Shown here: one piece after another, positions 9,077 to 48,281 of the stretch | How positions within the stretch are numbered: position 1 is the stretch's first letter | Layout of the letters: each line of letters begins with the position of its first letter | From: a virus | Taxonomy: Duplodnaviria; Caudoviricetes | Virus record (IMG/VR): IMGVR_UViG_3300036823_000047 | Location: 1-51,206 of that record | Length of the DNA stretch: 51,206 nt | Strand: one strand, 5' to 3' | Notes under the pieces: model-generated | What the model was told of the DNA's origin: nothing | What the model saw: the letters and a program-made list of their open reading frames with translations, nothing else | Databases searched by the model: none | Translations under genes and position numbers: made by a program

Positions 9077-9123
9077 ACCCGGGGCGTGTGGAGTCTCGTA
9101 CAATCCACTCCCCCGGGTTTAAC
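9077..9123 (+). promoter_or_regulatory. Hairpin/terminator containing element-A half site (CGTGTGGAG-N23-GTTTAAC)
   Basis: acccgggg...ccccgggt stem; CGTGTGGAG at 9085-9093; GTTTAAC at 9117-9123. Confidence 0.7.
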
Positions 9124-9162
9124 ATGGTTAATCGCCCTCATCGGAATTTCGTCCGTTGGGGG

Positions 9163-9192
9163 TTGCTTTAACATTGTGATCCAAGGTATAAT
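9163..9192 (+). promoter_or_regulatory. Sigma70-type promoter for chaperone/tape measure genes
   Basis: TTGCTT-N18-TATAAT followed by CAAGCA (same downstream hexamer as the 3239 promoter). Confidence 0.7.
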
Positions 9193-9223
9193 CAAGCATA
9201 AGAGACCAGTGGAGGGTCACGAA

Positions 9224-9586
9224 ATGCCTGTAGCAGTTGTCCAGAGTGAGGACCACCGGGAAGAGCTGAAGACGCTCCCTGGTGGTTACGTGGTCATCCG
9301 CGAGATGACCTACGGAGAGCGCATTACTCGGCAGAGCCTCATGGGTGCCATGAAGGTTCTGAAGGACGTTAAGTCGGACTACGCCGGCGAGATCTCGATG
9401 GCGACGGAGAAGATGACTCTCTGGGACTTCTCCCACCTCATCAAGGAGCACAACCTCCAGGACGCCGACGAGCGACTGCTCAACTTCCAGAACGTCCAGG
9501 ATGTTCAGAAGCTGTCCTCGAAGGTGGGTGACGAGGTTGGTTCCCTGATCGACAAGTGGAACAGCTTCGAGGACGAGGGAAACTAA
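9224..9586 (+). CDS. Tail assembly chaperone (gpG-like)
   Basis: GGAGG RBS before ATG 9224; ends in slippery GGGAAAC just before TAA. Confidence 0.85.
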   Translation: MPVAVVQSEDHREELKTLPGGYVVIREMTYGERITRQSLMGAMKVLKDVKSDYAGEISMATEKMTLWDFSHLIKEHNLQDADERLLNFQNVQDVQKLSSKVGDEVGSLIDKWNSFEDEGN

Positions 9587-9831
9587 TACCGCGGCTCAGG
9601 GCATCTATTGTCCTGGACCGCCCCGCTGACAGTGATGCAGTTGAAGTCCTGAACCTCTACCACTTCTGCAAGTTGTTCCATGCTCTACCAAGTAGTGGTG
9701 GCGTATTGGATCAGCCGTTCAAGGTGATGATCCTCTTCGAGGCAATCAGCGCTGCAGAGTCTGAGAGGGATATTCTGGAAGAGGCGCGTCGCAAGCGAGA
9801 GGCGAAACAAAGTGCCGGCAACCGTTCGTGA
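9577..9831 (+). CDS. Tail assembly chaperone -1 frameshift extension (gpGT-like)
   Basis: G-GGA-AAC at 9577-9583; -1 frame is open to 9831 (LPSSGGVLDQP). Confidence 0.85.
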   Translation, partial: GKLIPRLRASIVLDRPADSDAVEVLNLYHFCKLFHALPSSGGVLDQPFKVMILFEAISAAESERDILEEARRKREAKQSAGNRS

Positions 9832-12800
9832 CATCCTTCTTATGATCCGTGCGAAAGATGATGCAACACGGTCGCTGAACTCTGTCTCAAGCTCCATGCG
9901 CCGTGCCTCGTCCCAGGCACAAGCAGCAGGAGCACGTGCGAACGCTGCAGCTCTTCGAGCAGCTGCACAGCAGGGCCGCGTCAATGGTATGACAAACCAG
10001 CAGGTCGCGGCCCTGCGTCAGAACGCTACTGCGTGGGAGAACCACGCACGTGAGATCGAACGTGACAACAGTCGTATGCAGGAGATGGGTCAGACCATCT
10101 CTGGTGTAGGCCAGCTCATGACTACTGCTGGGCTAGGCATCGCTGCTGCAGGCGCTGTTGGCGTTGTCGCACTGGGTAAGACTGTAGGTGCGGCAGAAGA
10201 GTGGGACCGTCAGGTACGTCTTACTTGGACGCAGGTCGATAAGAAGTACAAGCCCTCGCTCCAGGCTCTTGGTGACATCGGTATTGATGTTGCCAAGAAG
10301 GTGGCAGTCCCATTCGATCAGATCCAGACGGCCTTGTTCGACATCTTCTCATCGATGGACGTTAGCCTCCCGCAGGCACAGAGCCTGATGATGTCATTCT
10401 CTAAGGCAGCCGTTGCTGGTCAGACTGATGTGCAGACGGCGTCTCGTGCAACCATTGGTCTGATGAACACCTTCGACGTACCTATCAAGGACGTCAACAA
10501 GGTTCTGAACTCTCAGTTCGAACTTGTCAAGGAAGGTGTCGGTACCTACGAGGAGTGGGCTAAGACCCTCGGTAACGTTTCACCTTCGGCTCGACGCGCT
10601 GGCCAGTCTATGGACACCATGATGGCTGCGCTCGCTACTGCTACTCGTCAAGGTATGACAGCCGCTCGGGCATCGACTTCAGTCGCACGTGCCTTCGACG
10701 CGATGTCGAATCCGAAGACAGAGAAGAACCTTCAGGCACTGGGTATTGCCACACGTGATGCCAAGGGGCAGTTCCTTCCCATGGTTGATGTGCTCGGCAA
10801 GTGGAAGGCACAACTTGACAAGCTGCCTGAGAAGGATAAGGTCAAGGAGATCCTTGACGTTATGAAGGGTGCTGGCGGCACCATTGAGGCGCGCCGCTTC
10901 CTTCAGAACATCCTCCTCACCAAGGGAGGCTTGGGCCTCTTCCAGACTGAGCTCAAGGCGTTCTCCACAGACAAGGACGCCTTCAAGCGTGGCTACAATG
11001 AGATGGCAGGCTCTGTCGCTTCGCAGACCACGTTGCTCAACAACGGCTGGCAGACTCTTAAGGTCACTGTTGGACATGCTCTCACTCCTGTTCTTCTTGA
11101 CCTAGTCAAGAAGGGTCAGAAGCTGATCGACTGGTTCAATAATCTTCCTGCACCTGTTAAGGAACTAATCGCGAAGCTTGCTCTCCTTGCATCTGTGCTC
11201 CTGATCATTAGTGGTGCTGCCACGATCATCGTAGGTGCACTACTTGCACTGGCTGGAGCAATCGCCGCAGCAGGTACAGCCATTCTTCCTGTCCTGGCTG
11301 GTATGACTCTTCTTGGCGGTGCCTTCGTCGCTATCGGTGGGGCGATCGCAGGCTTCGTCGCTCTAATGGTGCTGGCATGGCAGAAGAGTTCAAACTTCCG
11401 TGGCATGCTCCACGACATCTGGAACGATGTTAAGACGGATGCTGGTGTCTTTGTCGACGCTGGTAAGAAGATCTGGTCAGCAGCTCAGGCACAGATCGTT
11501 CCTGCTTTGAAGAATGTCTGGACAGTCATCGACCAGCAGTACATCCCAGCCATTCGTGATGCGATCAAGTGGATGCAGGATCATCTGCTTCCAGTCTTCC
11601 AGGCCATTGCAGCGTACGCCGAAGCACGTATCATTCCAGCGTTCAACCAGATCAAGGACGTCATCAACAACGATGTCGTTCCTGCACTGAAGTTAATGGT
11701 GGCCTGGTGGAACCAGAATAAGTCCACTCTCGTGCCACTCATCAACATGTTCCTGATGTTCGTCAAGATTCTCGGTGGTGTCGTTGTTGACGTCATCGTA
11801 GGCTTGATCACCTGGATTGCCATCATCATCAAGGTGCTTAGTGGCCTGAGCTACTACGTTCAGACACTTGCCAACGACTTCAAGAACCTTGTTACTGCAG
11901 GCATTAACCTTGTCATCGATACGTTGACACGACTGTACAACACCATCAAGGACGTCATCAAGTGGTTCAAGAGTCTTGGTGATGGTGCTGAGAGTTCCTG
12001 GAAGAAGGTGCCTAGTGTCTTCCGTAACGGCATCGGAACCATCAAGGGCATGTTTAGTAACTCCGGCAGTATGTTGTTCGGTGCAGGACAGAACATCGGA
12101 CAGGGTCTTGCGAACGGCGTCAACAGTAAGCTCGCAGCTGTACGTGCTGCAGGTACGGCAATTGGTAATGCCGTTGCTGCTGCTACACGCGCTTCACTGG
12201 ATGAGCACTCACCGTCAAAAGTGTTCAAGGATATCGGTGCCAACATCGTTCGCGGTCTGACACTCGGTGTCTCGACTGGTGGTACGCAGAAGCAGTTGTC
12301 TACGGCGTTGTTCAACTTGTCACGAAGTGTGATCAACTCCATCGACGCTGCTAAGGTCTCGAAGTCGCTTTCCAAGAAGCAGAAGAAGGCCATGACGAGT
12401 AAGTGGCAGACGCGTTTGTCTTCCACTACCAAGAAGCTGAACTCGCTCGAGAGCAAGCGTACAGCTCTCCAGACCAAGTTGGCTGCGGCACAGAAGAGTG
12501 TGAACGATCAGATCAAGGTTCGTAACGATCTGGCCTCCAGCATCACTGACTCGCTCAGCAAGCAGACTGACCTTACCACTCTGGATGTGAAGTCGCAGAA
12601 GAGTGCCACGTCGATGGCTGCAGGGTTGAACACGCGCTTGCAGGCACTCAAGACGTTCCAGGCTAACTTGCTCAACTTGTCCAAGCGAGGACTTGACAAG
12701 CAGACGATCGCAGACCTTGCATCGCAGGGCGTTGACACTGCAGGTGCGATCGTCCAGACGCTCGTCAATGGTAGCAACGGTGATCTGCAGCAGATCAGTA

Positions 12801-17048: not shown

Positions 17049-17748
17049 CATCAAGCGGTTCAGGGAAACACCTGACCTGGTTACGAAGCTGGCCGACATG
17101 GAACGTCGACTGGCTCTCCTGGAGAACACTCGACGCATTGGGACAACTTCGATCGACTCAGGACGTCTTGTCGTCAACCAGGGTGACATCGTGTTCGTCG
17201 ACTCCGATGGTCATGCAACGATGACTCTCCAGCATGGTGACACACCTGTCATCCGGATGCTGCCAGGTACTCAGCCAGGGTACCACGCAGCACTGTTCGC
17301 CTGGGACTCTGGTGACTTCGGTGCCATATACGAACAGCACATCGAACAGCAGGATGGTACCAGGGATGGTGGAAAGCTTCTCCTTCAGAAGAATGCCGCC
17401 TACCTGTCACACCAGCCAGCAAGTGGTGCTGAAGCCTTCATCGCTGTAGGCGATCTGGGACTAGGTACGGAGCACTTCCGTCTTCGAGGCCGCTGGCCCT
17501 ACAACACAGGATACGACGAGCAGGATGCCATCATCTGTGGCTTCGATTCTTTCGGAGCAGGCTTCGGTGCGTCGAGCTACTCGTTCCCGTTTACCTTCGA
17601 CCAGGTACCCATCGTGATCTGCAACATCATGAACGCAGGCACAGCAGTAGCGTGGGACCTCTCAGCAGTCTCCACTTCGGGGTTCTCAGTGGCATGGGCA
17701 ACCGGTACTACTGCCAAGACGGTCATGTGGGTGGCGTTCAGGCGATGA
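17041..17748 (+). CDS. Minor tail protein with C-terminal H-type lectin-like domain
   Basis: N-terminal coiled coil (LADMERRLALLE); FPFTFDQVPIV...STSGF...WVA C-terminus. Confidence 0.7.
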   Translation: MANIKRFRETPDLVTKLADMERRLALLENTRRIGTTSIDSGRLVVNQGDIVFVDSDGHATMTLQHGDTPVIRMLPGTQPGYHAALFAWDSGDFGAIYEQHIEQQDGTRDGGKLLLQKNAAYLSHQPASGAEAFIAVGDLGLGTEHFRLRGRWPYNTGYDEQDAIICGFDSFGAGFGASSYSFPFTFDQVPIVICNIMNAGTAVAWDLSAVSTSGFSVAWATGTTAKTVMWVAFRR

Positions 17749-18194
17749 AGATCGAAGACGTTCAGTTCCAGTCCGGGCAGTACGCCGTCACCTTGGTGAG
17801 GCAAGACTCCACACGGGAGAGGCACGTGTTCCCGCCTCAAACAGTTGCAGATCGTATGCAGCAACATGACCTGGGCCTCGATGAGGCAATCGTCCACGTT
17901 CTCAATGAACGTTTCGAAGACAATCCGATCCAGCCGAGTGAAGAGCACTTGGCAACGATCCGAGAGGAGTTCAAAGATGGCAAAGTACACGAAGGCATTG
18001 AGCGCGCTCGGCGCTGGCCTACTGGTAGCGATTCCGTCTCTCGTGGCAGCGGGACAGGATGGCCACGTGAGCCTTCAGGAGTGGCTGACCGTCCTGGGCC
18101 TGTTCGTCCCCGCCGTCGTCGTAGCGTTGTCGCCGGCGAACACGTTGGGGGAGAACCAGCTGGTACAGCAGGTCCTGAACAACCCCAGCGTTGA
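17745..18194 (+). CDS. Hypothetical protein (C-terminal half overlaps holin gene)
   Basis: ATGA coupling at 17745; first ~80 aa look natural, remainder overlaps 17977-18194. Confidence 0.5.
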   Translation: MKIEDVQFQSGQYAVTLVRQDSTRERHVFPPQTVADRMQQHDLGLDEAIVHVLNERFEDNPIQPSEEHLATIREEFKDGKVHEGIERARRWPTGSDSVSRGSGTGWPREPSGVADRPGPVRPRRRRSVVAGEHVGGEPAGTAGPEQPQR

Positions 18195-18327: not shown

Positions 18328-18334
18328 CAAGACT

Positions 18335-18390
18335 CCAACCCCCTTCGTGCTACCGTCGCTCTCCGGTAGTTCCACCACGAAGGGGGTTGG
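18335..18390. terminator. Bidirectional terminator between converging arms
   Basis: 15-bp stem 18335-18349/18376-18390 with inner ctaccg/cggtag. Confidence 0.8.
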
Positions 18391-18397
18391 TCTCTGT

Positions 18398-18850
18398 TCA
18401 CTTCAGCTTGACGAGAAACTCCTGGATGCCCTCAGTGAAGGTTCGATGGTAGAGCCAATGCCTGAGGGCATCTTTCTCGTGCTTCGACTTCGTCTTGATA
18501 CCGAGCTTCTTGATCTTGTCGTCCGTCCAGAAGGCCTTCGCCTGCGATGCGCTCTGCATGTACAGGAGTACGTCGTTGATCTCTGCGAAGGTCTTGATGG
18601 TCCCAACGAACTCTCCGGCCTGGTAGTTCAGGTACTCCTTGTCCCTGTACTCCTTCCGGAACTCGAAGCTCTCGCAGATGATTCGATCCTTGTTCGGATC
18701 GATCATGTTGTCGAGCCAGTGGTACAGGAACGCGTACGGCAGTTGATGCTTGGATACATCCGTGAAGTCCAACGTCACCGTAGCAAAGCCTGCAGCAGTC
18801 CAGTACACGATACCTGTATGAGGTCCAGGGTCAATTGCAAACGTCGTCAC
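18398..18850 (-). CDS. RuvC-like Holliday junction resolvase
   Basis: FAIDPG.HTG, ICESF, HEKDALRH motifs. Confidence 0.75.
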   Translation of the reverse strand: MTTFAIDPGPHTGIVYWTAAGFATVTLDFTDVSKHQLPYAFLYHWLDNMIDPNKDRIICESFEFRKEYRDKEYLNYQAGEFVGTIKTFAEINDVLLYMQSASQAKAFWTDDKIKKLGIKTKSKHEKDALRHWLYHRTFTEGIQEFLVKLK

Positions 18851-18875: not shown

Positions 18876-18985
18876 GGCCCGTGTGGAGTTCTTGAGTTAA
18901 CATGTTCTTGTTTAGACAAGGTTAGACGCGAGAAGATCTTGAGCTCTAGAACTGTGTTGCTACTAGAAGTCCTCGCGTCTAACCT
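18876..18985. repeat. Element-A arm plus element-B inverted repeat
   Basis: GGCCCGTGTGGAG 18876-18888; AGGTTAGACGCGAG 18919-18932 / CTCGCGTCTAACCT 18972-18985. Confidence 0.85.
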
Positions 18986-18999: not shown

Positions 19000-19326
19000 C
19001 TATTCCTCGTCGAAGTTCTCTCGAGCAAGCTTGGCTTTGAGGTCGTTGATCAGGGCGATCCTGTCATCTACTTCAGCCTGCAGTCGTGCGATCTTCGCGT
19101 TGATGCTCCCCTTCGTCACCGAGAGCTCGATGTTCTCGGCGTCAAGGTTTTGGCGGTTGTTGTCCTTGAAGATGGCACGCTCACCTGGAAGGAGCTGTCG
19201 ACCGATGCTTGCCTCTAGGATCAGAGTGTGCTTGCCAACCCAGCCACGGTCTTCTGTCTTGACCTGGATGTAGCCGTTGGCGTTAGTCGTTTCCGTCCCC
19301 ACTGGGCTCGTTACTCCACGCGGCAT
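19000..19326 (-). CDS. HNH-like protein with degenerate active site plus coiled coil
   Basis: NGYIQVK..WVGKH.LI.E..IGR.L.PGE..IFKDNNRQN...ENIEL. Confidence 0.65.
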   Translation of the reverse strand: MPRGVTSPVGTETTNANGYIQVKTEDRGWVGKHTLILEASIGRQLLPGERAIFKDNNRQNLDAENIELSVTKGSINAKIARLQAEVDDRIALINDLKAKLARENFDEE

Positions 19327-19516
19327 CTGCTACCACCACCTTGATGTCGGATTCGATCTCCCACATGAACTCTGCGAGCTTCGTGACAGCATCCGTCTTC
19401 TCTTCGAGGGACGGAGCACGCCACCCATCGATAGGGTAGCCGTTGGTCTTTGTGGGCTGTATGCTCCACGCGTCGACAATAGTAACAGCCTTGTCGATAG
19501 CCTCTTCACGGTTCAT
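19283..19516 (-). CDS. Hypothetical protein
   Basis: ATGA coupling to polymerase stop. Confidence 0.6.
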   Translation of the reverse strand: MNREEAIDKAVTIVDAWSIQPTKTNGYPIDGWRAPSLEEKTDAVTKLAEFMWEIESDIKVVVADAAWSNEPSGDGND

Positions 19517-21912
19517 AGTTCTCCCCAGCTCCTTCCTACTGATACATCTACTTCGAATGGGACGTAGTCGGTAATTCGACGAGCTGCTTCGACCATCTCA
19601 GTGCGGAGCATATGCTGCACGAGCTCCACCCGTGACTCATGCGCCTCGACGACCAGAGCATCGTGAATCGTAAGCCTAATGAATCCGATGCCCCGCAGCT
19701 GAGGACGTAGGCGTACGAGAGCACTAAGACAGATATCTGATGCAGTTGACTGAGGAAGGTAAGAGAGTCCTTCCTTGAAGACGTCGTTCTGTGTCTGAGG
19801 GGTGACGAGTGCGAAACGGCGTCGCCTACCGAAGGGCGATACCAGGTCTTCGCCTCGAAGGATCCTGTCCTTGATTGTCTCCTGCCATGCGACAGTGTCT
19901 GGGATCGTGGCGAGGAACGCCGCAAAGTCACTGCGTGCCTCGTCAAGGGGGATCTTGTACTCTTGTGCAATGGAGTAGGCTTCTCTACCGAACGCGATGC
20001 CGTAGAAGAAGGCCTTTGTTCTGACACGTTGTTCCTTATTCAGTTCCGAGGGATCGCACTTGTAGAGACCGGAGCCGAGCATATTGAACAAGTCCTGGTC
20101 ACTGGCAAAGATGTCACGCAGGTATGTGTCTTGAGCCAGCCACGCAATAACTCGACCCTCAGCCTGCTTGTAGTCTGCTTGTACCAGGACGTGTCCCGGC
20201 TTGCTCGCAACAAACTGACGTCTAATGTCCTTATCCCGGACAATGTTCTGTAGGTTCGGATTCCTACTCGCCAGGCGGCCAGAGGTCGTCCCGTGGAGAA
20301 GGTAGTTGGTGAAGACACGGTTACCGTAAAGCCTTTTCCGAATACCTTTGACGTAGGTCCCGTAGCGCTTAGCTTCGAAGCGATGCGCCAGTAGTCCGTC
20401 AACGAACTGACCTTCGTGCGTTTCGAGACTGAGCCGCTCCGCAAGACTATTGAGAGTGTCTTTGTCGGTCGAGGCGACACGAATCGCTCGCGCTTCGAAG
20501 AACGCCTTGACTTGCTTCGGGGAGCGGGGGTTGATTGCTTTGATGTCTCCCTTAGTAGCCTCAGCAACGATTCGGGATAGGTCATCTTCCATCCTATCCA
20601 GCTTGGACAGGTAAGCCCGCTCAAGCTCCTTGTTGTAGTCTACATCGACCGCCATACCGTTGAGCTCAAGGTACATAAGCTCATTTGATGCTGCCACCAG
20701 GAAGTCATGCCAATCCCGGAGAGACTTGACAGGCAGACTCGGATAAGGCCAAACCCATGCCTCGGGCGTAGGTGCATCGAGCTCGGCAGTGAACACCTCG
20801 AACAGATCCCACGTACACGCGATGTCAATTGCATTGTATTTGTATAGGATGGGACGGGGGATCTGTGCGTAGGAGCCACCGTGCGGGATGAACCTCTTGA
20901 TCTCGTCGTCGTACTGTGGAGCACCCAAACGTTCGACTGCAAGGACCTTAAGTCCATGTCCTCCCGAACGTTCGTCCAAAGCGTAGTGCGCCAGCATAGT
21001 GTCGAACCATAGTCTGAGGGCACCAAAGATGGGATAGAGACCTTCGAGATCGAACTTACCGTTTTGGCCAATGAGTCGACTGCGCCGTAGAATACGGTAA
21101 AGCCGTCCCCTGACTTGAGCGTTTGCCATTGCAGCTTCGCCGACGACATAGACCGAGCCCTTCTCCCAGCCAAGTCCCACACAGAGCATCTGATACATGT
21201 TCGGGTGATCGAACGATGTATCCTTGTCGATACCTACCTCGATGTCGATAACCAGTTCGAGGTTGCCTGTCTCGTTCTGCCAACGCCAGAGCCAGTCGAG
21301 GAACGTAACGGCTTGAAGAGGTTCCTCACCGTAGTTCCAAGTAGGCTCCTTCCAGTCGTTCAGGAAGACCTTGTTGACCTTCTCGATGTCCGAGGCTAGC
21401 GTTGGAAACGCATCTGGATTTCGGAGAGCGTAAGCAGGGTGCCACGTTGGGATAATTCGCTCAACAGGGCTATTGCGAAGTCGCTCGGTCGGTCTTTTCG
21501 GAGGGCCAACACGGAGGGCTGTAATAGTCCTTGGATCGTCAATGAGGATATTAGTTGCAGTTCCTCCGAGCGCAACCACAGTAGCGACACCGGAGTCGGC
21601 GAGCTCTTGTAGAAGGCGAGGTCGACAAGCAACCTGTGCTGCTGCAGGTGGAGTTGCATTGTCTGGAGGTCGACATAGGCAGACATTGGTATACAACACC
21701 TCCTTGCGTTCGAAGCCTACGTAGTTCAGAACACGATCAAGCAGCTTGCCAGATGGTCCCTTGAAGGGTTCACCGTACACTGTCTCCTGGAAACCTGGAG
21801 CTTCTCCGACAACTGCCAGGCGAGGCACCCCCACCGGAATCAGTGAGGGTGCCATGCGCTCGTCTTTCAAAGGGCAGTGTTCGCAGTCAGCCCCAGGAGC
21901 CTTAGGCTCCAC
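19513..21912 (-). CDS. Family A DNA polymerase with N-terminal family-4 uracil-DNA glycosylase domain and 3'-5' exonuclease
   Basis: CxxC, GEAPG, CLCRP, WHPA (UDG); DIE, NGKFD, YNAID (exo); TTSGRLAS.NPNLQN, DYKQAE, K...YG, IHD (pol A). Confidence 0.95.
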   Translation of the reverse strand: MEPKAPGADCEHCPLKDERMAPSLIPVGVPRLAVVGEAPGFQETVYGEPFKGPSGKLLDRVLNYVGFERKEVLYTNVCLCRPPDNATPPAAAQVACRPRLLQELADSGVATVVALGGTATNILIDDPRTITALRVGPPKRPTERLRNSPVERIIPTWHPAYALRNPDAFPTLASDIEKVNKVFLNDWKEPTWNYGEEPLQAVTFLDWLWRWQNETGNLELVIDIEVGIDKDTSFDHPNMYQMLCVGLGWEKGSVYVVGEAAMANAQVRGRLYRILRRSRLIGQNGKFDLEGLYPIFGALRLWFDTMLAHYALDERSGGHGLKVLAVERLGAPQYDDEIKRFIPHGGSYAQIPRPILYKYNAIDIACTWDLFEVFTAELDAPTPEAWVWPYPSLPVKSLRDWHDFLVAASNELMYLELNGMAVDVDYNKELERAYLSKLDRMEDDLSRIVAEATKGDIKAINPRSPKQVKAFFEARAIRVASTDKDTLNSLAERLSLETHEGQFVDGLLAHRFEAKRYGTYVKGIRKRLYGNRVFTNYLLHGTTSGRLASRNPNLQNIVRDKDIRRQFVASKPGHVLVQADYKQAEGRVIAWLAQDTYLRDIFASDQDLFNMLGSGLYKCDPSELNKEQRVRTKAFFYGIAFGREAYSIAQEYKIPLDEARSDFAAFLATIPDTVAWQETIKDRILRGEDLVSPFGRRRRFALVTPQTQNDVFKEGLSYLPQSTASDICLSALVRLRPQLRGIGFIRLTIHDALVVEAHESRVELVQHMLRTEMVEAARRITDYVPFEVDVSVGRSWGEL

Positions 21913-22660
21913 GCGCCCAGCTGAGGAAGGTATCGATGTTGTACGACAGCGTGTCGTTATCGATCTTCCCCGTCCAGTCAGCCGTGAAGTATGCTCCTGG
22001 ACGGTTCATGTGCACGTCGGGAGCATCAATGCGGAAGCCCGCGATGGCGTAGTTGTACGGCATGCTGCTGTCGACACCTCGTACCCACGGGAACTCCTTC
22101 CCGATCGTCTTGACCTCCTTCGGCCACACAGGGTTGGTGCCAAGAAGGTGAACACGGGTGTCCTCGCCCCACCGCCGAGCGATGTACTTCAGAACGTGGA
22201 TCCGTGCCTCGACATCGGCCAGCGTGGTCAAGAAGTGCCGAGGGATACCGAGAACAGGATTGTCGTAGGTGTTCATGTAGTGATCGATGCTACGCTGAAC
22301 CTCGTGCCAGTCGAGGCCCTGGACGACCAACATGAAGCGCAGGGGTGGCAGACCGGACCAATGACTCTTCCGGTCCAGGAAGTCCCGAACGCGGTTGATC
22401 GTCCCCTCGCAGTCCCTCATGACGTCGGGAACAACAACCTCGTTCGCCGACATGTTCCGAGCAGCGATGATCAGATCAGCATCCGAGACAGTGCTACCCT
22501 CAGCGGCACCGTTATCGACGATGACATAGTCGCCAGCGCCCGCCTCGTAGGCGTAGTTGCTCAGGTAGTCGTCCGTATCGATCTGTGCCAGCGCCAGGTG
22601 GTAGTTGGACACATGCACCGTGTTGTAGTAACCCTTCGGGGCGATCAAGGCCGCTTTCAT
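21902..22660 (-). CDS. dpdA: DpdA-like 7-deazaguanine DNA transglycosylase (TGT fold)
   Basis: VDNGA, VPDV, VVQG, VHLLG, RGVDSS motifs; in operon with preQ0 synthesis genes. Confidence 0.75.
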   Translation of the reverse strand: MKAALIAPKGYYNTVHVSNYHLALAQIDTDDYLSNYAYEAGAGDYVIVDNGAAEGSTVSDADLIIAARNMSANEVVVPDVMRDCEGTINRVRDFLDRKSHWSGLPPLRFMLVVQGLDWHEVQRSIDHYMNTYDNPVLGIPRHFLTTLADVEARIHVLKYIARRWGEDTRVHLLGTNPVWPKEVKTIGKEFPWVRGVDSSMPYNYAIAGFRIDAPDVHMNRPGAYFTADWTGKIDNDTLSYNIDTFLSWARGA

Positions 22661-23377: not shown

Positions 23378-23610
23378 ACCTCGTCCTTCTTGTCGCCACC
23401 GGTCCAGCGGTCCGAGCCTTCGTGCCCCAGTGTCTGATGAATGGTTGGTCCCTGGATGTGCTTGGACTGCATGTGCTGCAGCTTGGCCATCTCCATGTAG
23501 CCAACAGCCTCGACGGTGGTAAAGCCTTCGCTAACGGATACCTCCAGACCGATCTCTTCCCTCTCGATGTCCTCAACGACCGTGATGACGATCTGCTTCT
23601 CTACCCTCAT
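23374..23610 (-). CDS. Hypothetical protein inside modification cluster
   Basis: ATGA coupling with folE stop at 23607-23610. Confidence 0.6.
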   Translation of the reverse strand: MRVEKQIVITVVEDIEREEIGLEVSVSEGFTTVEAVGYMEMAKLQHMQSKHIQGPTIHQTLGHEGSDRWTGGDKKDEV

Positions 23611-24242
23611 TTGATCCTCGACAGAAACTCGGTCTTCGCGGTCTTGGAGTGATCGCTGAAGACACCACGGGTCACCACAGTGCTTGTAGTCGTGCCTGGG
23701 GTCTGAACCCCACGAATGGTCATGCACAGGTGCTCAGCCTCCATCATCACGATGATCCCCTTCGGGGTAAGGCGCTGCTCGAGGAAGTCGGCCACGTTCT
23801 CCGTCAGCCCCTCCTGCACCTGAAGTCGTCGAGCGAAGTGGTGAACCACTCGAGCGAACTTGGAGAGGCCTGCTACCTCGCCGTCAGGTACGTAACCGAT
23901 CCAGGCGTGACCGACGAACGGGACGACGTGATGGTTGCAGACGCTCGCGAAGGGGATGCGGTTGATGATCACCATCTGGTCAACGTCTTCCGCGAACGTC
24001 TTCCACTTGATGCAGTCACCGTTACAGTCCTTGCACCTGGTCACCTCCTCGATCATGTTGATGAAGCGCTTCGGAGTCTCTCGAGCGTGGCCACTCGTCA
24101 TGTCGAGGCCAGCGTGGTTAGTGAGGATGTTCTCTGCATCCTCAACAGTCGTACTGAAGGTATTGCCCATAGGCCCTTCGACAGCCGGAGTGAAGATTTC
24201 TCCCAGGCGCTTCAGACCTGGGTTAAAGTGCTGCTCGTTCAA
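23607..24242 (-). CDS. folE: GTP cyclohydrolase I
   Basis: ETPKR, CNHH, GLSKFAR, RLQVQE, HLCM.IRG motifs. Confidence 0.95.
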   Translation of the reverse strand: MNEQHFNPGLKRLGEIFTPAVEGPMGNTFSTTVEDAENILTNHAGLDMTSGHARETPKRFINMIEEVTRCKDCNGDCIKWKTFAEDVDQMVIINRIPFASVCNHHVVPFVGHAWIGYVPDGEVAGLSKFARVVHHFARRLQVQEGLTENVADFLEQRLTPKGIIVMMEAEHLCMTIRGVQTPGTTTSTVVTRGVFSDHSKTAKTEFLSRIK

Positions 24243-24243
24243 G

Positions 24244-25466: not shown

Positions 25467-25478
25467 CTGAACGACCTG

Positions 25479-26029: not shown

Positions 26030-26044
26030 CCGTGTTCCTCTCTT

Positions 26045-32943: not shown

Positions 32944-33034
32944 GTTTAACCCTCCTCTCATGTCGCCACAATGCTCCACACGGGCTTGCTGTCCCAAGTG
33001 AAATCCCTAGGATGGAATTCACGTGCGTGTGGAG
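32944..33034. repeat. Element A half site plus outward-facing second arm
   Basis: GTTTAAC 32944-32950, N23, CTCCACACG 32974-32982; CGTGTGGAG 33026-33034. Confidence 0.85.
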
Positions 33035-33042
33035 CACTGAAG

Positions 33043-33261
33043 CTACACGTCAGTCGGTTGTGTAACTTGGGCCGTCTTGCAGTGGCCGTAGCTCTCGTGA
33101 CGCTCGTTCGTACACGGCGCCAGGAACTTGTGGTAGTGAACGTAGGTCGCCTCGCCCGCGGTGGCCTGCTTGCGGCTCTGCTGGGCTACGACATCCGCGT
33201 CGATCTGGTCAGGGACGATGTACTTGTGGTGATCGGCGAAGACGCCGTGCACCTCATGCAT
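33043..33261 (-). CDS. Hypothetical His/Cys-containing protein
   Basis: Coupled ORF in minus-strand operon. Confidence 0.55.
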   Translation of the reverse strand: MHEVHGVFADHHKYIVPDQIDADVVAQQSRKQATAGEATYVHYHKFLAPCTNERHESYGHCKTAQVTQPTDV

Positions 33262-36907: not shown

Positions 36908-37016
36908 GCGGTTAGTTCGGTAGGTAGTTTAGACCAGTTAGTTGTTAGGTTAGACGCGAGTTCACCCATCAGTAAGACACTTGTGAGGGCTTAGTTAGAC
37001 GATCGGTTAGAAACTA
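36908..37016. repeat. GTTAG/CTAAC-rich non-coding tract with element-B copy
   Basis: AGGTTAGACGCGAG 36947-36960, GTTAGACGA 36994-37002, several further TTAG units. Confidence 0.7.
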
Positions 37017-37416: not shown

Positions 37417-37917
37417 CTACTGCTCCTTCGACAACTGGATGTGATCCACGACCTTTTCCTGTAGCTCCTGGAGTCCCTTGCCGAGGTTCTCGATCGCCTC
37501 GCCGTACTGGTTGACCATGTGCACGAGGTCCTTGACCCGCTGCTCCAGGATCGCCGACTGTCCCTTCGTGGCTCGCCGACGCTCCATGATAGCCTTGAAG
37601 CCATCCTCGGTCGGCTCACAGTGAAGGATCCACTTCGACAGACCCACACCACCACCGCGACGAAGCTGCTCGATGCAGTTCTGTCCGACGAGGGCGTTTC
37701 GGATCTTCGTGTAGTACGGATTGGCGATCTCGAGCTCGGCGAAGAGCCGAGTCAGGTGGCCCTCGTAGATGTTGACCTCTACGTTGAACTCCTGCACGCC
37801 GTCCTCGACGTCACCGTTGTTCAGCGTCTCCTTGTGCGACCTCTTCAGCATCTCCTCGTACACACGCTTGGCGTGGTCGAAGAGAGCTGGAGTCACCTCT
37901 TCTGTAGTGCTACTCAC
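37417..37917 (-). CDS. Hypothetical winged-helix/coiled-coil protein
   Basis: IEQLRRGGG..LSKW; C-terminal coiled coil. Confidence 0.6.
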   Translation of the reverse strand: MSSTTEEVTPALFDHAKRVYEEMLKRSHKETLNNGDVEDGVQEFNVEVNIYEGHLTRLFAELEIANPYYTKIRNALVGQNCIEQLRRGGGVGLSKWILHCEPTEDGFKAIMERRRATKGQSAILEQRVKDLVHMVNQYGEAIENLGKGLQELQEKVVDHIQLSKEQ

Positions 37918-38107: not shown

Positions 38108-38221
38108 TATGATACCCTAGTCTCACATAGCATGGCAGTGTTAAACCTACAACGCCTTTTGGAAAGGCCCGCCAATGAACGGGGGTACATTGACGGGCCC
38201 ATCTTCCCTGCTGGGGGAAGC

Positions 38222-38779
38222 TTACTCCGCCTCGACGACCTCGGCGACCGGCTGAACGGTCTCGGTGGTCGACGCCGGCGCGTCCTTCTTGGCGGCCTTC
38301 TCGGCAGCCTTGTTGGCGGCGGCAGTCTTCTGCGCGGCGACCCGAGCGTCCTTGGCGTCCCACCACGCGAGCGCGGCCTGCGGGTCGACGACCGCAGCGC
38401 GGCCCTCGGCCTTCTCCGCCGGGAACGGGTTCTTACTCTCCGGGCCGTTGTTCTTGATGTACGAGTACACGACCTGCGGAGCGACGGTGATCTCGGCCGC
38501 CTCGGAGTTGGTCTCGCGGGCCTTGGCGGTGAGGTGCTCCGAGAGCACCTTCGCGAAGGCGACCGGGCTGACCTTGCCCTCGGGAACCGGCGGACGCGTC
38601 GACTCCTTCTTCTCCTTGGCCGGCGTCTCGTCGGTGGTCGCGGCCTGGCCGACGGTGTCCTCGCTGGTGACCTCGGGCGCAACGATCGGGGCGTCCACGT
38701 CGACGTCGCCGAAGTCAGGGGTGGTGGTTTCGGTGCTCACAGTGGTACTCTCTTTCGCTTGGGCGGTCTTTCTGGGCAT
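38222..38779 (-). CDS. DNA-binding protein, PQxxY family, with Ala/Lys-rich tail
   Basis: VSPVAFAK...VAPQVVYSYIKNN; AAEKAAKK tail; very high GC3; own promoter. Confidence 0.65.
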   Translation of the reverse strand: MPRKTAQAKESTTVSTETTTPDFGDVDVDAPIVAPEVTSEDTVGQAATTDETPAKEKKESTRPPVPEGKVSPVAFAKVLSEHLTAKARETNSEAAEITVAPQVVYSYIKNNGPESKNPFPAEKAEGRAAVVDPQAALAWWDAKDARVAAQKTAAANKAAEKAAKKDAPASTTETVQPVAEVVEAE

Positions 38780-38842: not shown

Positions 38843-39349
38843 TTACCGTGCGTTGTTAAGGCACGCCCAGAAGCGTCGGAGCGCTGTCGAAACCCCTCGC
38901 TCGTATTGCGTACGTTGGAAGCGCTTGTGGATGTTCTCGTACAGCTGTTCGAACATCTTCGGGTCGCTCTTGTGCAGCTTCTTGAGGTCTTGTGTCACAG
39001 CTGCCCAAGTCCACTTGTAGCCGACGCTGCAGACGCCCGAGTGTGTCCAGGTGTCCTTGTGTACGTTCTTGTCTCGCCACTCCACTACAGTGGCAAGCAG
39101 GTCCTTGTTCTCAGGCACTGTCTTCATGTTCATCTTGTACGACTGAACGACAGCCTTCATGGAAGTGTTGACCCTGAAGCAGCGAACCTCTCGGTCGATC
39201 GGGTTCTCACTGTTGTCCAGGTACTTGGTCAGCTTCTTCAGGTTCGACTCAACGCCAACATCCGTTGACCATCCACCGAACTCCTCGATGCTAGCCAGGC
39301 AGCTGAGTCGAAGTACCTGCCATTCCACGTTGTACAGAACCTCGAACAT
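38843..39349 (-). CDS. Hypothetical protein
   Basis: GGAGG RBS; own promoter. Confidence 0.7.
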   Translation of the reverse strand: MFEVLYNVEWQVLRLSCLASIEEFGGWSTDVGVESNLKKLTKYLDNSENPIDREVRCFRVNTSMKAVVQSYKMNMKTVPENKDLLATVVEWRDKNVHKDTWTHSGVCSVGYKWTWAAVTQDLKKLHKSDPKMFEQLYENIHKRFQRTQYERGVSTALRRFWACLNNAR

Positions 39350-39606: not shown

Positions 39607-39686
39607 GGCCCGTGTGGAGATGTGTGGTTTACAACAGACCTTGTTTAACTAGCGCCTGCCTTCGTCCCAACCCCTCCACACGGGCC
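39607..39686. repeat. Full symmetric element A: CGTGTGGAG-N23-GTTTAAC-N24-CTCCACACG
   Basis: 13-bp inverted arms 39607-39619 and 39674-39686; core 39643-39649. Confidence 0.9.
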
Positions 39687-40515: not shown

Positions 40516-40556
40516 TTGGGCGGATCCTTTCTAATGGTACGGTATGTCCGTACTCG

Positions 40557-40633
40557 TGCGCCTGAGTGGACTCGAACCACTGCTTCCCCTTGCCCCAGAC
40601 TGTAGGGCGGCTTCCTGACGGAAGCTCAGGCGA
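40557..40633 (-). ncRNA. tRNA-like cloverleaf 1 (non-canonical)
   Basis: CGCCUG/CAGGCG acceptor, CUUCC/GGAAG arm, GCCCU-ACAGUCU-GGGGC arm, AGUGG-UUCGAGU-CCACU T arm. Confidence 0.7.
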
Positions 40634-40823
40634 CCCCTCTATCCCATGAACGCGTAGGGTCGTTCGAATAGAGGCACTTATCCCTTACCTGTTCGGCCGA
40701 CCGGAGCCTCCGCCATTTGCATTGCGGTCAGGTGGGGGATCGAAGATCTGGTCTCCGTACTCTTCCAGGAGACGTGCGTTCTGTTCCGATCGAGTGGTCA
40801 TGCTGTAGAGGCCGTCGTCGTCC

Positions 40824-41631: not shown

Positions 41632-41651
41632 GTTTCCTCCCTAGATTGTCA

Positions 41652-41712
41652 CGTACCGTAAGAGGACTTGAACCTCTTGGCTGCCAAGGGCTGCGACCCT
41701 CTCAGCTACGGC
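41652..41712 (-). ncRNA. tRNA-like fold 2 (acceptor + T arm + single hairpin)
   Basis: GCCGUA/UACGGU stem, AGAGG-UUCAAGU-CCUCU T arm, GCUG/CAGC enclosing AGGG/CCCU. Confidence 0.65.
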
Positions 41713-41842
41713 GGTACCACATAAAATGCCCTCATGGCAGTCGAAGAACTTTGGACGTTAGACCATGACTCTGCCCTCCAATTGTACGGCCTCGATGCTT
41801 GCGTGGGTGCCATTAGCTGTTTATCCCTCTCACATCGAGTCG

Positions 41843-41916
41843 GGCCCCTGGGAGGCATCGAACCTCCACTAACCGCCGCTTGAAGTTCCCGGCGCGTACG
41901 TATCCCATGCAGGGGC
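41843..41916 (-). ncRNA. tRNA-like cloverleaf 3 (11-nt anticodon-position loop)
   Basis: Perfect 7-bp GCCCCUG/CAGGGGC, GGAGG-UUCGAUG-CCUCC T arm, CGCCG/CGGCG arm. Confidence 0.72.
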
Positions 41917-41922
41917 GTCTTG

Positions 41923-43563: not shown

Positions 43564-43764
43564 TTACCTCTTGATCAGGTTACCCTTCCGGTAAGGGTGA
43601 CCTCCTTGCTTGCGGAAGACGGCGCCATTGGACTCGAGCAAGTGATGCATGCCCGAGTAGCTGTACCCGTACTTGTCTGCCAGGAACCGAATGCTGTCCC
43701 CCTTGAAGTACTGGGCCACGATAATCTCCTGGCCCTTCTTCGTGACCCTCGACACCGCACTCAC
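43564..43764 (-). CDS. Small HTH DNA-binding protein
   Basis: Y..GDSIRFLADKYGYSYSGMHHLL...G..FR. Confidence 0.75.
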   Translation of the reverse strand: MSAVSRVTKKGQEIIVAQYFKGDSIRFLADKYGYSYSGMHHLLESNGAVFRKQGGHPYRKGNLIKR

Positions 43765-45039: not shown

Positions 45040-45133
45040 GGTTAACAACACCGAACACGTAGACCCAAAGCACCACACGCCATGGTTTGAATGGCTGTCC
45101 TGGTTTGGGTCTCATGCACATCTGTTGTTAGCC
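45040..45133. repeat. Long imperfect hairpin containing variant element A
   Basis: GGTTAAC 45040-45046, N24, CACCACACG 45071-45079; stems ggttaacaaca/tgttgttagcc, agacccaaa/tttgggtct, gccat/atggc. Confidence 0.75.
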
Positions 45134-45693: not shown

Positions 45694-45699
45694 GGGGTT

Positions 45700-45860: not shown

Positions 45861-46261
45861 CAGTACCACGACCCCTTCGCGTTCTGTGCACCAACCCGTC
45901 GTTCCTTACTGGTCGTCATGACCAGTACGTTCTTCTCCGGACGGCCCTGCTTGTACGTGTCAGGCTCACGATACCCATCTGCCCTCGACAGGAGCTGCAG
46001 TACGTCCGCCCAACTCAACATGAACGTCTCTACCACAACCCTGTCCTCGACGAGCCGCGTAACCGAAGTGTTCGGCTTCTGGGGCTTGAGTCCCAGTGCC
46101 AGCAACTCCTCATCCGAGACCCACGTACTCCTCACCCGCTTCAGGATGGCATTGTTGTCATACCACTCTTCTACGGCCCACGACGGAATCGTAACCTTGA
46201 ATGTCAAACCAGGGCGCTCAGGGTCTGCGTTCGTCACGAATACGAATGTATCCATGCCCAT
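45860..46261 (-). CDS. Hypothetical protein
   Basis: GGAGG RBS after promoter. Confidence 0.6.
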   Translation of the reverse strand: MGMDTFVFVTNADPERPGLTFKVTIPSWAVEEWYDNNAILKRVRSTWVSDEELLALGLKPQKPNTSVTRLVEDRVVVETFMLSWADVLQLLSRADGYREPDTYKQGRPEKNVLVMTTSKERRVGAQNAKGSWY

Positions 46262-46290
46262 GCCTCCTAGGGTTTCGTGCTCTTGGATCT

Positions 46291-46320
46291 ATTATACCAC
46301 AGAAACCCATATGACTTCAC
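46291..46320 (-). promoter_or_regulatory. Early promoter with extended -10
   Basis: GTGAAG-N18-TATAAT with TGn. Confidence 0.6.
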
Positions 46321-46382
46321 GACCGTCTGCTGATCGTACGGTCTGGCTCCCCTCTACTAGCTACCGACGATGTATGACCTGA

Positions 46383-46700
46383 CAAACAGGTCGCTAAACC
46401 TGTATGCGAGGCGCAGAAACCGTCTCGGAAAATCGGTCTATTCCCTCTTGAACCCTAACTCGATCATTGGCTGTTCTAGTACCATTCAAGTTAAAGTTCA
46501 TAATACGGGTGTTATTATATCTATGAATTTATATACATAGTTATACTAGAGATTATACAGTACGAAGACTCTAGTCTTTCTACCTTGTTAAACAACCGTT
46601 GTTTTTCTAGCTCGGTGGGATTAGTTCGTAGAACGATACTAATCCCGGACTAGACAATATTACCTGCCTAGATCCCCTAGCCCCTGTGGTGCTGTGGAGG
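46383..46700. other. AT-rich non-coding region (candidate origin or physical terminus region)
   Basis: No ORFs, visibly lowest GC in the window, CTAG-rich; near the divergence of the two arms. Confidence 0.5.
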
Positions 46701-46726
46701 CGACCTAAGCCGCCTCCCAGACCGGA

Positions 46727-46804
46727 CTATCCCCTCGACATTACCAGGGCCATGATTACGATCCCCAGGAGCATCCACTGGAGTACCGAGGCGTGGACCT
46801 TCAC
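46727..46804 (-). CDS. 25-aa hydrophobic peptide
   Basis: GTGA coupling; MKVHASVLQWMLLGIVIMALVMSRG. Confidence 0.45.
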   Translation of the reverse strand: MKVHASVLQWMLLGIVIMALVMSRG

Positions 46805-47047: not shown

Positions 47048-47377
47048 CTAGATCTGCTTGGTGACGTACTTGGTAGCGAAGGCCACCGACTGGTCCTTCG
47101 TGAGGGCCTTGATACCCTTCTCCCCCTTAACCAGTAGGCCGTTCCGGGAGTAGTTGTACATCATCTGGGGGCGGATCCGCTTCCCACTCCCGAGGGCCTC
47201 CAGGGCCCCGTTCACGATGTTGTGGAGGGCGTAGGGGGTGATGGTCTCCGAGTCCCCGAACACCGTCTCGGTGAGCTCCATGATCACCGTCTCCGGGGTG
47301 GGGGTCTCCTCGAGTTCGGTCTCCTCGAGAACGGTCTCTTCGATGGACTCGGGCTGGGTGGTGGTGATGTCGGACAT
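47048..47377 (-). CDS. DNA-binding protein, PQxxY family, acidic N-terminus
   Basis: ITPYAL...IRPQMMYNYSRNG; first gene of leftward arm. Confidence 0.7.
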   Translation of the reverse strand: MSDITTTQPESIEETVLEETELEETPTPETVIMELTETVFGDSETITPYALHNIVNGALEALGSGKRIRPQMMYNYSRNGLLVKGEKGIKALTKDQSVAFATKYVTKQI

Positions 47378-47425
47378 GGGGTGCTCCTTTGGGTTTTGGT
47401 TGGTTTTTGTTTTCCTGATAACTAT

Positions 47426-47454
47426 ATTATAATGCGGATCATGTAAAGATGCAC
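47426..47454 (-). promoter_or_regulatory. Leftward promoter of divergent pair
   Basis: GTGCAT-N17-TATAAT; A/C-rich unstructured leader and AGGAG RBS. Confidence 0.65.
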
Positions 47455-47517
47455 GCTCCCTACGTGTTTATCAAAACTACATCCAAAACATGTGTTACCA
47501 TGTGGGTCAAGATAGGC

Positions 47518-47546
47518 TTGCTATTGTGATCTGACTCAGCTATAAT
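47518..47546 (+). promoter_or_regulatory. Rightward promoter of divergent pair
   Basis: TTGCTA-N17-TATAAT-CA; GGAGG RBS. Confidence 0.7.
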
Positions 47547-47566
47547 CAGCGTAAGGGAGGGCCAAT

Positions 47567-47926
47567 ATGGACGATGCATGGGTTACTGAGGCTGAGCTTG
47601 CCGCTCTTGGACTCGATCGAGCGACAGGTATTCGGACTGCCGATGGCGGAGCTGAAGGCTACGTAGACCAGGCCAACCGGATGATCCGTGAGGGTGCGCC
47701 CATGGCGGCCGCTTCTCTGGTTCGTCTGGCGCAGTACTCCGAGAGCGACACGATTCGACTCCGAGCTGCGGTTGAGATCCTGAACCGCGCCACCGTGCAG
47801 GGTGCTTCGTCTGTCGACGGTCGCGAGCCTTGGGCGGCTGTGTACGAGAACGTCCTCACGGCTGGGGATGTTGACAAGATGGTCCAGGATGCCAATGCCT
47901 GGCGTGCATCTCAGGAAGGTCGGTAA
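47567..47926 (+). CDS. Probable terminase small subunit
   Basis: AAASLVRLA...SDTIRLRAAVEILNR helical motif; first gene of packaging arm. Confidence 0.6.
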   Translation: MDDAWVTEAELAALGLDRATGIRTADGGAEGYVDQANRMIREGAPMAAASLVRLAQYSESDTIRLRAAVEILNRATVQGASSVDGREPWAAVYENVLTAGDVDKMVQDANAWRASQEGR

Positions 47927-48042
47927 TGGCTGCTGCAAAGAAAGCCGCTGCGAAGAAGGCAATGCCGCCTGCGTTCATCAAGCAGGCGAAGAAGAGCGCT
48001 GCTACGCCTGTCAAGAAGGCTGCGCCGAAGAAGAAGCGCTAG
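47926..48042 (+). CDS. 38-aa histone H1-like Lys/Ala-rich peptide (not in ORF track)
   Basis: TAATG coupling; MAAAKKAAAKKAMPPAFIKQAKKSAATPVKKAAPKKKR. Confidence 0.75.
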   Translation: MAAAKKAAAKKAMPPAFIKQAKKSAATPVKKAAPKKKR

Positions 48043-48121
48043 AAGCCAGTTAGACGAGCAAGCTCTCGAAGCCTCACCCTTGTAACACTGGGGCTGGTTT
48101 GCTCGTCTAACCTAGCTTCTA
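48040..48121. repeat. Element-B-like long inverted repeat
   Basis: GTTAGACGAGCAA 48049-48061 / TTGCTCGTCTAAC 48099-48111, plus tagaagc/gcttcta. Confidence 0.85.
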
Positions 48122-48240
48122 ATCGGTCTAGCAAAGCAGCTATAATAAACACGGTATGAGAGCTGATCACCTAAGGACGGTAGGATCCTAACCAGCTCGA
48201 CACGCACATAAGCCACTACGGATCGCCAAGTAACCCCAGG

Positions 48241-48281
48241 CGTGTGGAGTCTTGAAGAGCTGCTCTAGGAGGTAGTTAAAC
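48241..48281 (+). repeat. Element A half site
   Basis: CGTGTGGAG-N25-GTTAAAC; degenerate inverted arm CTCGACACG at 48196-48204. Confidence 0.75.

Follow-up and report, generated by a model that had tools for sequence, protein, structure and literature searches.

The window analysed here, the whole 51,206-nucleotide stretch of IMG/VR record IMGVR_UViG_3300036823_000047 (Duplodnaviria; Caudoviricetes), carries a dispersed two-part DNA element. A complete unit of this element consists of an asymmetric arm (CGTGTGGAG, or CTCCACACG on the opposite strand) and a palindromic GTTWAAC core at a nearly constant distance. Units are intergenic, sit at the boundaries of gene modules, occur singly or as symmetric triads in which two inverted arms flank one core, and are kept in related phages. 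The element is tentatively read, at a confidence well under even, as a phage-family-specific cis-regulatory DNA signal, namely a putative factor-bound polar gate on transcription between modules.

The exact arm was found in 10 copies in the window, compared with 0.93 copies expected and a maximum of four in 100 shuffled sequences. The sequence-only reading that first described the element had listed nine exact copies; those nine were real and enriched, but the copy at 17807(-) had been missed. All 10 exact arms were outside of gene calls, in keeping with the earlier statement that every copy is intergenic, and the chance of this outcome was ~1.5e-11 (8.3% of positions hold a wholly intergenic 9-mer). 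The status of the 17807(-) arm is ambiguous, as an alternative open reading frame (ORF), 17652-18194(+), would make it coding. The GTTWAAC core was present in seven copies against 2.04 expected, and 0 of 100 shuffles reached seven. An arm was located 22-25 nt from five of the seven cores, forming seven arm-core pairs with arms at 9085, 25481, 25545, 32974, 39611, 39674, and 48241. When seven cores were placed at random, three or more arm-associated cores occurred in 0 of 100,000 placements genome-wide and in 1 of 100,000 placements within intergenic DNA. The motif scan and shuffled-sequence comparison, which had been named beforehand as a check, upheld both the enrichment and the fixed distance between arms and GTTWAAC.

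Arms with at most one mismatch were at chance level overall (25 observed, 22 expected), so one-mismatch variants need support from their context. The variant at 45071, previously listed with a core nearby, had such support: a 24-nt gap separates it from GTTAACC, a ribosome-binding site comes next, and the same eighth-position variant recurs in relatives. The proposed variant at 48196 did not hold up as an arm. It belongs to the flank of a conserved leader hairpin, and most relatives do not retain it as an arm.

Anatomy of the unit and its conservation in related phages

Position weights from 88 unique copies extended the arm to ~14 bp, i.e., CGTGTGGAG followed by TTYTG, with a G/C-rich upstream flank. 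Position weights also extended the core to the palindrome tGTTWAACa, followed by GG. The gap of 23±1 nt between arm and core had no conserved sequence, and the distance from arm centre to core centre was ~31-32 bp, or ~three helical turns. The G and C ends of the core and its free central W were kept even in single units, degenerate cores kept the outer G and C, and the central W switched between close relatives at the same site.

A triad is two units sharing one core. In total, 18 triads with arms of at most one mismatch on both sides were identified, and both gaps of these triads were 22-25 nt. The two triads of the window had the gaps first reported for them, 24/24 nt (25481-25553) and 23/24 nt (39611-39682). 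The interiors of the 16 triads tested were not complementary (z from -2.6 to +1.9, with one below -2), indicating that the symmetric spacing is selected in its own right; the triad as one long hairpin was rejected on the same evidence. The eighth position was the sole variable arm position in triads, and in seven of eight variant triads the change was unmatched in the partner arm. A regular spacing of units around the genome was also considered and was rejected after the intervals were inspected.

A scan of viral contigs with the bipartite arm-core pattern yielded 108 loci, 52 of which were 67-78% identical to the window at the nucleotide level. Exact arms numbered 11, 9, 12, 11, and 9 in five complete or near-complete relatives of ~51 kb, against 0, 0, 0, 0, and 1 for the reversed control. 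Four further ~51 kb soil-phage records contained 3, 5, 11, and 5 arms. A distant relative, with matches for 36 of the 83 window proteins, contained ~10 arm-like sites and cores at equivalent places. Among 185,579 bacterial and archaeal species (one genome each), a stricter pattern gave only eight single matches, scattered over unrelated bacteria, and no prophage-like multi-copy matches. The arm-core signal therefore belongs to the phage family and not to the host.

Altogether, the window and the 52 related loci comprised 478 kb of DNA (88% coding) and 90 unique arms, of which 72 were intergenic, 14 were “coding,” and four were at locus edges; some of the 14 “coding” arms reflect gene calls that overlie triads. 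In the related DNA, GTTWAAC was found within 5-60 nt of 59 of 89 unique arms, and all 59 gaps were 22-25 nt long (22 nt, 7 pairs; 23 nt, 31 pairs; 24 nt, 18 pairs; 25 nt, 3 pairs). An exact arm was found within 60 nt of 48 of 63 unique cores. The search of related phages had likewise been named in advance, and it bore out the claim that spacing is conserved while spacer sequence is not: units were kept in relatives with all 59 gaps at 22-25 nt and gap sequence free. The protein-DNA architecture that the sequence-only reading had proposed from this spacing is still suggested by the fixed gaps, the non-complementary triad interiors, the toggling of the central W, and the uncompensated arm variants.

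Orientation, RNA hairpins and promoter signals

Gene calls and orientations were taken from the codon-usage caller of this analysis, which placed 83 genes in the window. Lone complete units were sense to the flanking genes in 18 cases and antisense in two, whereas lone arms without a core had no orientation bias (five vs. eight). Sites in the window are numbered S1 to S7 and S7' (Table 1). Units S4, S5, and S6 lie between blocks of leftward genes, and the S4 arm of antisense orientation is just upstream of the start of a QueD-like gene at 25466. The S3 site, which has no complete unit in the window, is a complete unit in the distant relative G007.

A local hairpin built on the arm (predicted dG ≤-20 kcal/mol) was found for 14 of the 39 units in sense orientation and for none of the 16 in antisense orientation. 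In the predicted hairpin the arm provides the 5' side of the stem, pairing ends with the first G of the core, and up to five pairs are G·U. Because of these G·U pairs the sense RNA folds better than its complement. The hairpins belong to two syntenic sites, S1 (eight orthologues) and the sense half of S4 (10 orthologues). The alignment consensus at S1 was weak, with a pairing register that differed among the eight orthologues. The sense half of S4, which forms the local hairpin 25520-25560 on the minus strand of the window, had 13 consensus pairs across its 10 orthologues; some of these showed wobble changes, and pairs in the flanks covaried. No local hairpin was found at S7 or in most S5 and S6 units, and the S7 unit had no conserved RNA structure (-1.35 kcal/mol, 11 sequences).

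Some copies are thus terminator-like RNA hairpins, but being a hairpin is not a property of the arm-core unit itself. The sequence-only reading had described the element as a protein-DNA architecture “rather than a simple terminator,” which was too strong, as the arm is the 5' strand of a conserved sense hairpin ending at the core at two sites. The U-run of an intrinsic terminator was not found; the tail is UUUAAC or UUAAAC, with 2-3 U. Among the units, a consensus terminator scan listed only 25543-25559(+), a stretch shared in part with the right-hand arm of the S4 triad. No Rfam family matched either strand of the window at the gathering score.

Unit S7 is located ~95 nt downstream of a -10-like A/T box and downstream of a conserved leader hairpin. 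The leader hairpin (GAGCTGA..CCTAAGG..CCTAACCAGCTC) follows TATAAT at 48141, and its inner stem covaries in relatives. No second copy of this hairpin was found elsewhere in the window. The hairpin at 48160-48199 may be a leader RNA of the late operon.

The units were compared with known promoter types. A sigma-70/sigma-A test found no -35/-10 consensus in the units, and the promoter scan listed no unit. A TTG 3' of the arm is 16-18 nt from the core, and the core hexamers TTWAAC and TWAACA lack A at position 2 and/or T at position 6. The geometry of a bidirectional promoter is present in the 18 triads without the -10 consensus. In the window and six relatives, the S5 gap contains the ribosome-binding site and the core is directly followed by the start codon; this speaks against the core as a -10 element there, because a transcript start downstream of it would fall inside the gene. 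In relative L042 the S5 site is a triad with its second arm inside an ORF. At S7 the ribosome-binding site begins 5-8 nt past the core, which is borderline for a promoter start upstream of it.

Promoters of the ordinary kind were found outside of the units. Near-consensus host-type promoters (TTGNNN-N17-18-TATAAT) were present in other intergenic regions, and units in relatives L009, L060, and G007 were followed by TATAAT-type or sigma-A-like promoters. A strict scan of the minus strand found no sigma-70-type promoter between ~38100 and 18850. At 3228-3268(+), where L009 and G007 have an arm-core unit upstream of a promoter, the window has a plain hairpin and TTGCGA-N18-TATAAT; L009 retains the same promoter sequence as the window. 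An extracytoplasmic function (ECF)-type reading, with GGAAC upstream and GTT at the arm end, was rejected, as GGAAC occurred at -22..-5 in two of 44 sense arms and four of 25 antisense arms and the spacing was too short. Resemblances to sigma-54 promoters, sigma-B promoters, and DnaA boxes were dropped by eye for misfits of spacing or consensus.

Sites in the window and layout of the phage genome

Table 1. Arms, cores, and complete units of the element in the window, with their immediate context.
Feature	Position	Strand	Description
S1 arm	9085-9093	+	Sense; after tail protein gene 8134-9069; 5' strand of hairpin 9078-9117
S1 core GTTTAAC	9117-9123	+	23 nt past arm; TTGCTT-N18-TATAAT at 9164-9197; next gene start near 9224
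S2 orphan arm, no core	17807-17815	-	Antisense to flanking + genes; kept in relatives L113 and L019
S3 arm	18880-18888	+	Antisense to flanking - genes; only GTTAAC at 18896-18901, 7 nt away
S4 triad	25481-25553	.	Arm 25481-25489(+), core 25514-25520, arm 25545-25553(-)
S5 sense unit	32944-32982	-	Arm 32974-32982, core 32944-32950; GGAGG ribosome-binding site in gap; ATG 32943 abuts core
S5 antisense unit	33026-33066	+	Back to back with sense unit; arm 33026-33034, degenerate core GTGTAAC 33060-33066, 25-nt gap
Armless core GTTAAAC	38140-38146	.	Intergenic
S6 triad	39611-39682	.	Arm 39611-39619(+), core 39643-39649, arm 39674-39682(-); downstream 55-aa gene starts 39580
S7' variant unit	45040-45079	-	Arm CGTGTGGTG 45071-45079, 24-nt gap, core variant GTTAACC 45040-45046; ribosome-binding site and ATG next
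Armless core GTTAAAC	46587-46593	.	In 545-bp intergenic region
S7 context	48141-48199	+	-10-like TATAAT 48141-48146; conserved leader hairpin 48160-48199, 3' flank including 48196 variant
S7 unit	48241-48281	+	Arm 48241-48249, core 48275-48281; 20 nt upstream of GTG 48302, first gene of packaging/structural operon

The virus record is complete at 51,206 bases, with terminal repeats present, and is circularly permuted, since the portal gene spans the record ends. DNA of the window was present in soil metagenomes (11 soil DNA runs, contig level), and the INPHARED phages contained no near DNA match to it. At the protein level, the primase was ~30% identical mainly to those of Microbacterium, Gordonia, Arthrobacter, and Streptomyces phages, and capsid identity was ≤34%. 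The host is probably a soil actinobacterium.

The genes form two blocks. The rightward block begins at 47567, crosses the record end, and reaches 18327; it contains packaging, head, and tail genes. The leftward block runs from 47377 to 18398 and contains small early genes, an SNF2 helicase, a PD-(D/E)XK nuclease, a primase, a 7-deazaguanine precursor set, and a family A DNA polymerase. The precursor set (23607-26866, minus strand) comprises GTP cyclohydrolase I, a radical-SAM QueE-like protein, PTPS/QueD, and QueC, and the S4 triad is located within it. These precursor genes suggest a modified guanine in the phage DNA. The DNA polymerase (19513-21912, minus strand) has an N-terminal uracil-DNA-glycosylase-superfamily domain fused to it. 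A very strong bidirectional hairpin (dG ~-50 and -54 kcal/mol) at 18328-18397, where the two gene blocks converge, is likely a two-way terminator.

Additional features were noted in intergenic DNA. The 545-bp intergenic region at 46256-46800 contains several TATAAT boxes, short hairpins, and an armless GTTAAAC core, and is a possible early control or origin region. An ORF of 38 residues at 47926-48042(+), Lys/Ala-rich, basic, and histone-tail-like, is immediately upstream of the late-operon leader. Repeats of the GTCTAAC/TCTAAC type, confined to intergenic DNA, were found at 48049-48135, 18921-18983, 36949-37000, and 41757; among them are two long hairpins whose ends are GTTAGACG...CGTCTAAC and, immediately upstream of TATAAT at 48141, three TCTAAC-like sequences in direct repeat. 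The enrichment of GTCTAAC repeats in the window was not significant (seven observed, 4.9 expected). Two long intergenic regions on the minus strand, 40516-40684 and 41632-41922, contain tRNA T-loop-like strings (GGTTCGAGTCC and GGTTCAAGTCC). Their identity as tRNAs was rejected, as ARAGORN found no tRNA, and the regions may be decayed tRNAs or other structured RNA.

Putative function and comparison with known systems

In the reading tentatively favoured here, one or more phage-encoded factors would bind the arm and the core on double-stranded DNA, and the bound complex would pause or block host RNA polymerase between gene modules until licensed. A single unit would gate the sense direction only, while a triad or two back-to-back units would gate both directions. 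At two sites the sense-RNA hairpin formed from the same arm, ending at the T-rich core, would add an intrinsic terminator-like signal. A more specific form of this reading, somewhat less likely than the general one, is a new symmetric nucleoprotein gate in which a putative factor holds the arm and the palindromic core three helical turns apart. Such a gate would cover ~40 bp as a single unit and ~75 bp as a triad, deciding passage direction by direction. It would be a lytic-phage counterpart of stoperators with another architecture, some copies being fused to the arm-built RNA hairpin. The transcription gate meets the fewest conflicts among the readings considered.

Several observations weigh against a transcription gate. 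No binding protein for the units was identified among the window proteins scanned. Pfam (70 proteins) and PHROGs (20 proteins) scans found no repressor, integrase, or partition family in the window, so stoperator-like silencing would be without an obvious lifestyle context. Essential modules are downstream of units: S5 and S4 precede the genes for replication and DNA polymerase, and S7 precedes every late gene. Given these modules and the lack of a strict minus-strand promoter at ~38100-18850, a gate must be leaky or licensed, and a promoter explains the promoter-less replication block more simply. Termination at S7, S5, and S6 would rest on protein alone, as these sites have no local hairpin. 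Additionally, the counts are not independent: the hairpins represent only two sites, the 18 sense single units represent ~five syntenic sites, and the orientation bias itself depends on the codon-usage gene calls.

Three small proteins were considered in the search for a factor. The Pfam/PHROGs scans revealed one small helix-turn-helix protein (HTH_58, 43564-43755); it was not found in relatives, in which that region was covered in only a few phages, and this too counts against a gate. The protein encoded at 47567-47926 has the look of a small terminase subunit on weak evidence (PDB 6w7t, E 0.3; model predicted local distance difference test [pLDDT] score 66.6). The first leftward early gene, 47048-47377(-), encodes a protein with an acidic N-terminus and a conserved C-domain of four helices, in which the motif QMMY.Y...G is invariant and most members read PQMMYNY.RNG. 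Among the small early proteins, this one alone has a counterpart in the distant relative. For this protein there was no PDB sequence match and no fold or family match, atlas leads were weak (≤0.80), and Foldseek gave only EF-hand-like four-helix matches (E ≥0.06), which likewise does not help the gate. Other window proteins conserved in the distant relative include those encoded at 21902-22660, 37417-37917, 38222-38779, 38843-39349, 32250-32639, and 18398-18850.

The element could instead be a phage-specific middle or late promoter, at which a phage factor redirects host RNA polymerase, the arm and TTG serve as a -35-like or activator site, and the core serves as a -10-like element; triads would then be pseudo-symmetric bidirectional promoters sharing one core. 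This alternative is rather unlikely. In its favour, the units are sense-oriented, intergenic, family-specific, present at ~10 per genome at module starts, and absent from bacterial genomes; strict sigma-70-type promoters are lacking from the ~20 kb block of replication and nucleotide-metabolism genes that comes after S5 and S4; and the TTG is at a promoter-like 16-18 nt from the core. Inverted upstream elements about a symmetric centre are the geometry reported for bacterial bidirectional promoters (PMC12825309, PMC10268837), and promoters have been demonstrated in the intergenic repeats of halovirus HF2 (PMC8707807). The conflicts arise at the core and at individual sites. The S5 ribosome-binding site in the gap with its ATG abutting the core (window and six relatives) and the L042 triad overlapping an ORF do not fit, and the core has neither the A2 nor the T6 of TANNNT, toggles at its central base, and keeps its palindromic ends in single units. 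There was no base preference at the expected start site, the near-consensus TTGNNN-N17-18-TATAAT sequences elsewhere imply that ordinary host-type promoters are in use, and perfectly conserved antisense arms would imply selected antisense promoters in co-directional gene arrays.

Punctuation at the RNA level, with the sense transcript carrying a terminator or 3'-end stabiliser, an endonuclease processing site comparable to the RNase III sites of T7, or a translational operator next to ribosome-binding sites, is unlikely. Here the arm would be a strand recognised by protein or RNA, pairing locally or with the anti-arm. Every complete unit site has a sense-oriented arm, the G·U-containing local hairpins at S1 and S4 are sense-only, arm/anti-arm stems of 11-21 bp are possible in the sense RNA of triads and back-to-back pairs, a ribosome-binding site is within ~20 nt of units at S4, S5, S6, S7, and S7', and of seven triads in which one of the two arms is a variant, five have the exact sequence on the sense side. 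A one-strand RNA does not explain, however, why the antisense arm-core distance is as tightly kept as the sense distance with spacers unpaired. Arm variants without compensation in seven of eight variant triads, the absence of conserved structure at S7, the antisense orphan arms S2 and S3, the 2-3 U after the stem, and the lack of an Rfam family match also speak against it.

Another DNA transaction (strand-specific nicking, replication priming or pausing, recombination, or a looping genome organisation) is improbable. It would suit the symmetric architecture with a palindromic core and arms ~three helical turns away, the dispersal of units every 1-12 kb around the genome, and the HNH gene at 19000-19326, a candidate for nicking; the flip of unit orientation with the gene arms diverging from 47378-47566 would fit a replication origin there. 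The avoidance of coding DNA, the closeness of gene starts, and the arm-built sense-RNA hairpins point instead to gene expression, and no recombinase was found in the Pfam/PHROGs scans of window proteins. A functionless repeat, e.g., the relic of a small mobile element, is scarcely credible. The inverted 9-11 bp ends that flank ~55 bp in triads have that appearance, but the same syntenic sites are occupied in relatives of ~70% identity, full divergence of the spacers has left arms, core, and gap length in place, and the interiors differ between copies.

Gene regulation in uncultivated actinophage-like soil phages is almost unknown, and the module boundaries here bear one recognisable signal. 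This signal is a handle on its cognate factor, on the temporal programme, and on the annotation of transcription units in metagenomic phage genomes. If the transcription gate is correct, transcription control by dispersed elongation blocks would extend beyond temperate mycobacteriophages, and the element would provide a compact orientation-dependent insulator part for Actinobacteria. If the promoter is correct, the units would form a new promoter class with a palindromic downstream element.

The arm-core element was not described in the full-text literature searched by sequence and keyword (supplementary motif tables were outside the search), and searching by motif sequence returned only primers and unrelated papers. 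The earlier suggestion of an undescribed element is in line with this result, although dispersed repeats as such are known in actinobacteriophages. The stoperators of phages L5, Bxb1, and D29 are found in short intergenic spaces and are orientation-biased relative to transcription. Cluster A mycobacteriophage stoperators are many dispersed, short, asymmetric sites at which a bound phage protein stops elongation (PMC9283540). The element shares with them an asymmetric arm (~14 bp) repeated genome-wide (9-12 per complete or near-complete relative) and orientation-biased in lone units. It differs in having a palindromic core at a set distance (gap of 23±1 bp) and in its frequent symmetric doubling, and there is no sequence similarity. 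Additionally, no repressor, integrase, or lysogeny genes were found here, and binding is putative.

The start-associated sequence (SAS) of Cluster K phages is a 13-bp repeat at the translation initiation site, and the extended SAS (ESAS) consists of 17-bp inverted repeats with a spacer of mostly 4-13 bp; both are dispersed, oriented repeats by gene starts, conserved at the same genes, and reported to be of unknown function (PMC3203893). On that description the arm-core element resembles SAS/ESAS in being dispersed, oriented, near gene starts, partly inverted, and conserved at the same genes. Here, though, 30 to ~130 nt separate the arm from the start, different sites place the arm differently with respect to the ribosome-binding site, and inverted arms are ~53-56 nt apart around a palindromic core, which is outside the SAS/ESAS definition as given there. 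The 17-bp palindromes of Cluster O occur in more than 30 dyad-symmetric copies in non-temperate-looking phages, most not at promoters, and the authors predict binding of a dimeric protein and a role other than initiation (PMC4351075). Their outer bases, TGTT...AACA, resemble the core found here; they are single palindromes in more copies, without oriented arms or a fixed-gap element. None of these Cluster A, K, and O analogues combines an oriented arm with a palindromic core at a set distance, and no known class tested here was matched in every respect.

Two other systems are also comparable. The RNase III sites of phage T7 are ~ten sense-oriented intergenic hairpin signals that punctuate long transcripts. 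All T7 sites are hairpins, whereas S7, S5, and S6 are without one and antisense arm spacing is constrained. In the bacterial interspersed mosaic elements (BIME) of enterobacteria, of the repetitive IHF-binding palindromic (RIP) type, two inverted repetitive extragenic palindromic (REP) units surround an IHF site. The likeness is that inverted units flank a central protein-binding site, putative in the element described here, in intergenic DNA; BIME/RIP are host chromosomal, their units are themselves palindromic hairpins, and their sequence and spacing are unrelated. Overall, the arm-core element is best filed among the dispersed regulatory repeats of phage genomes, with an architecture for which the literature searched gave no description and with a putative function.

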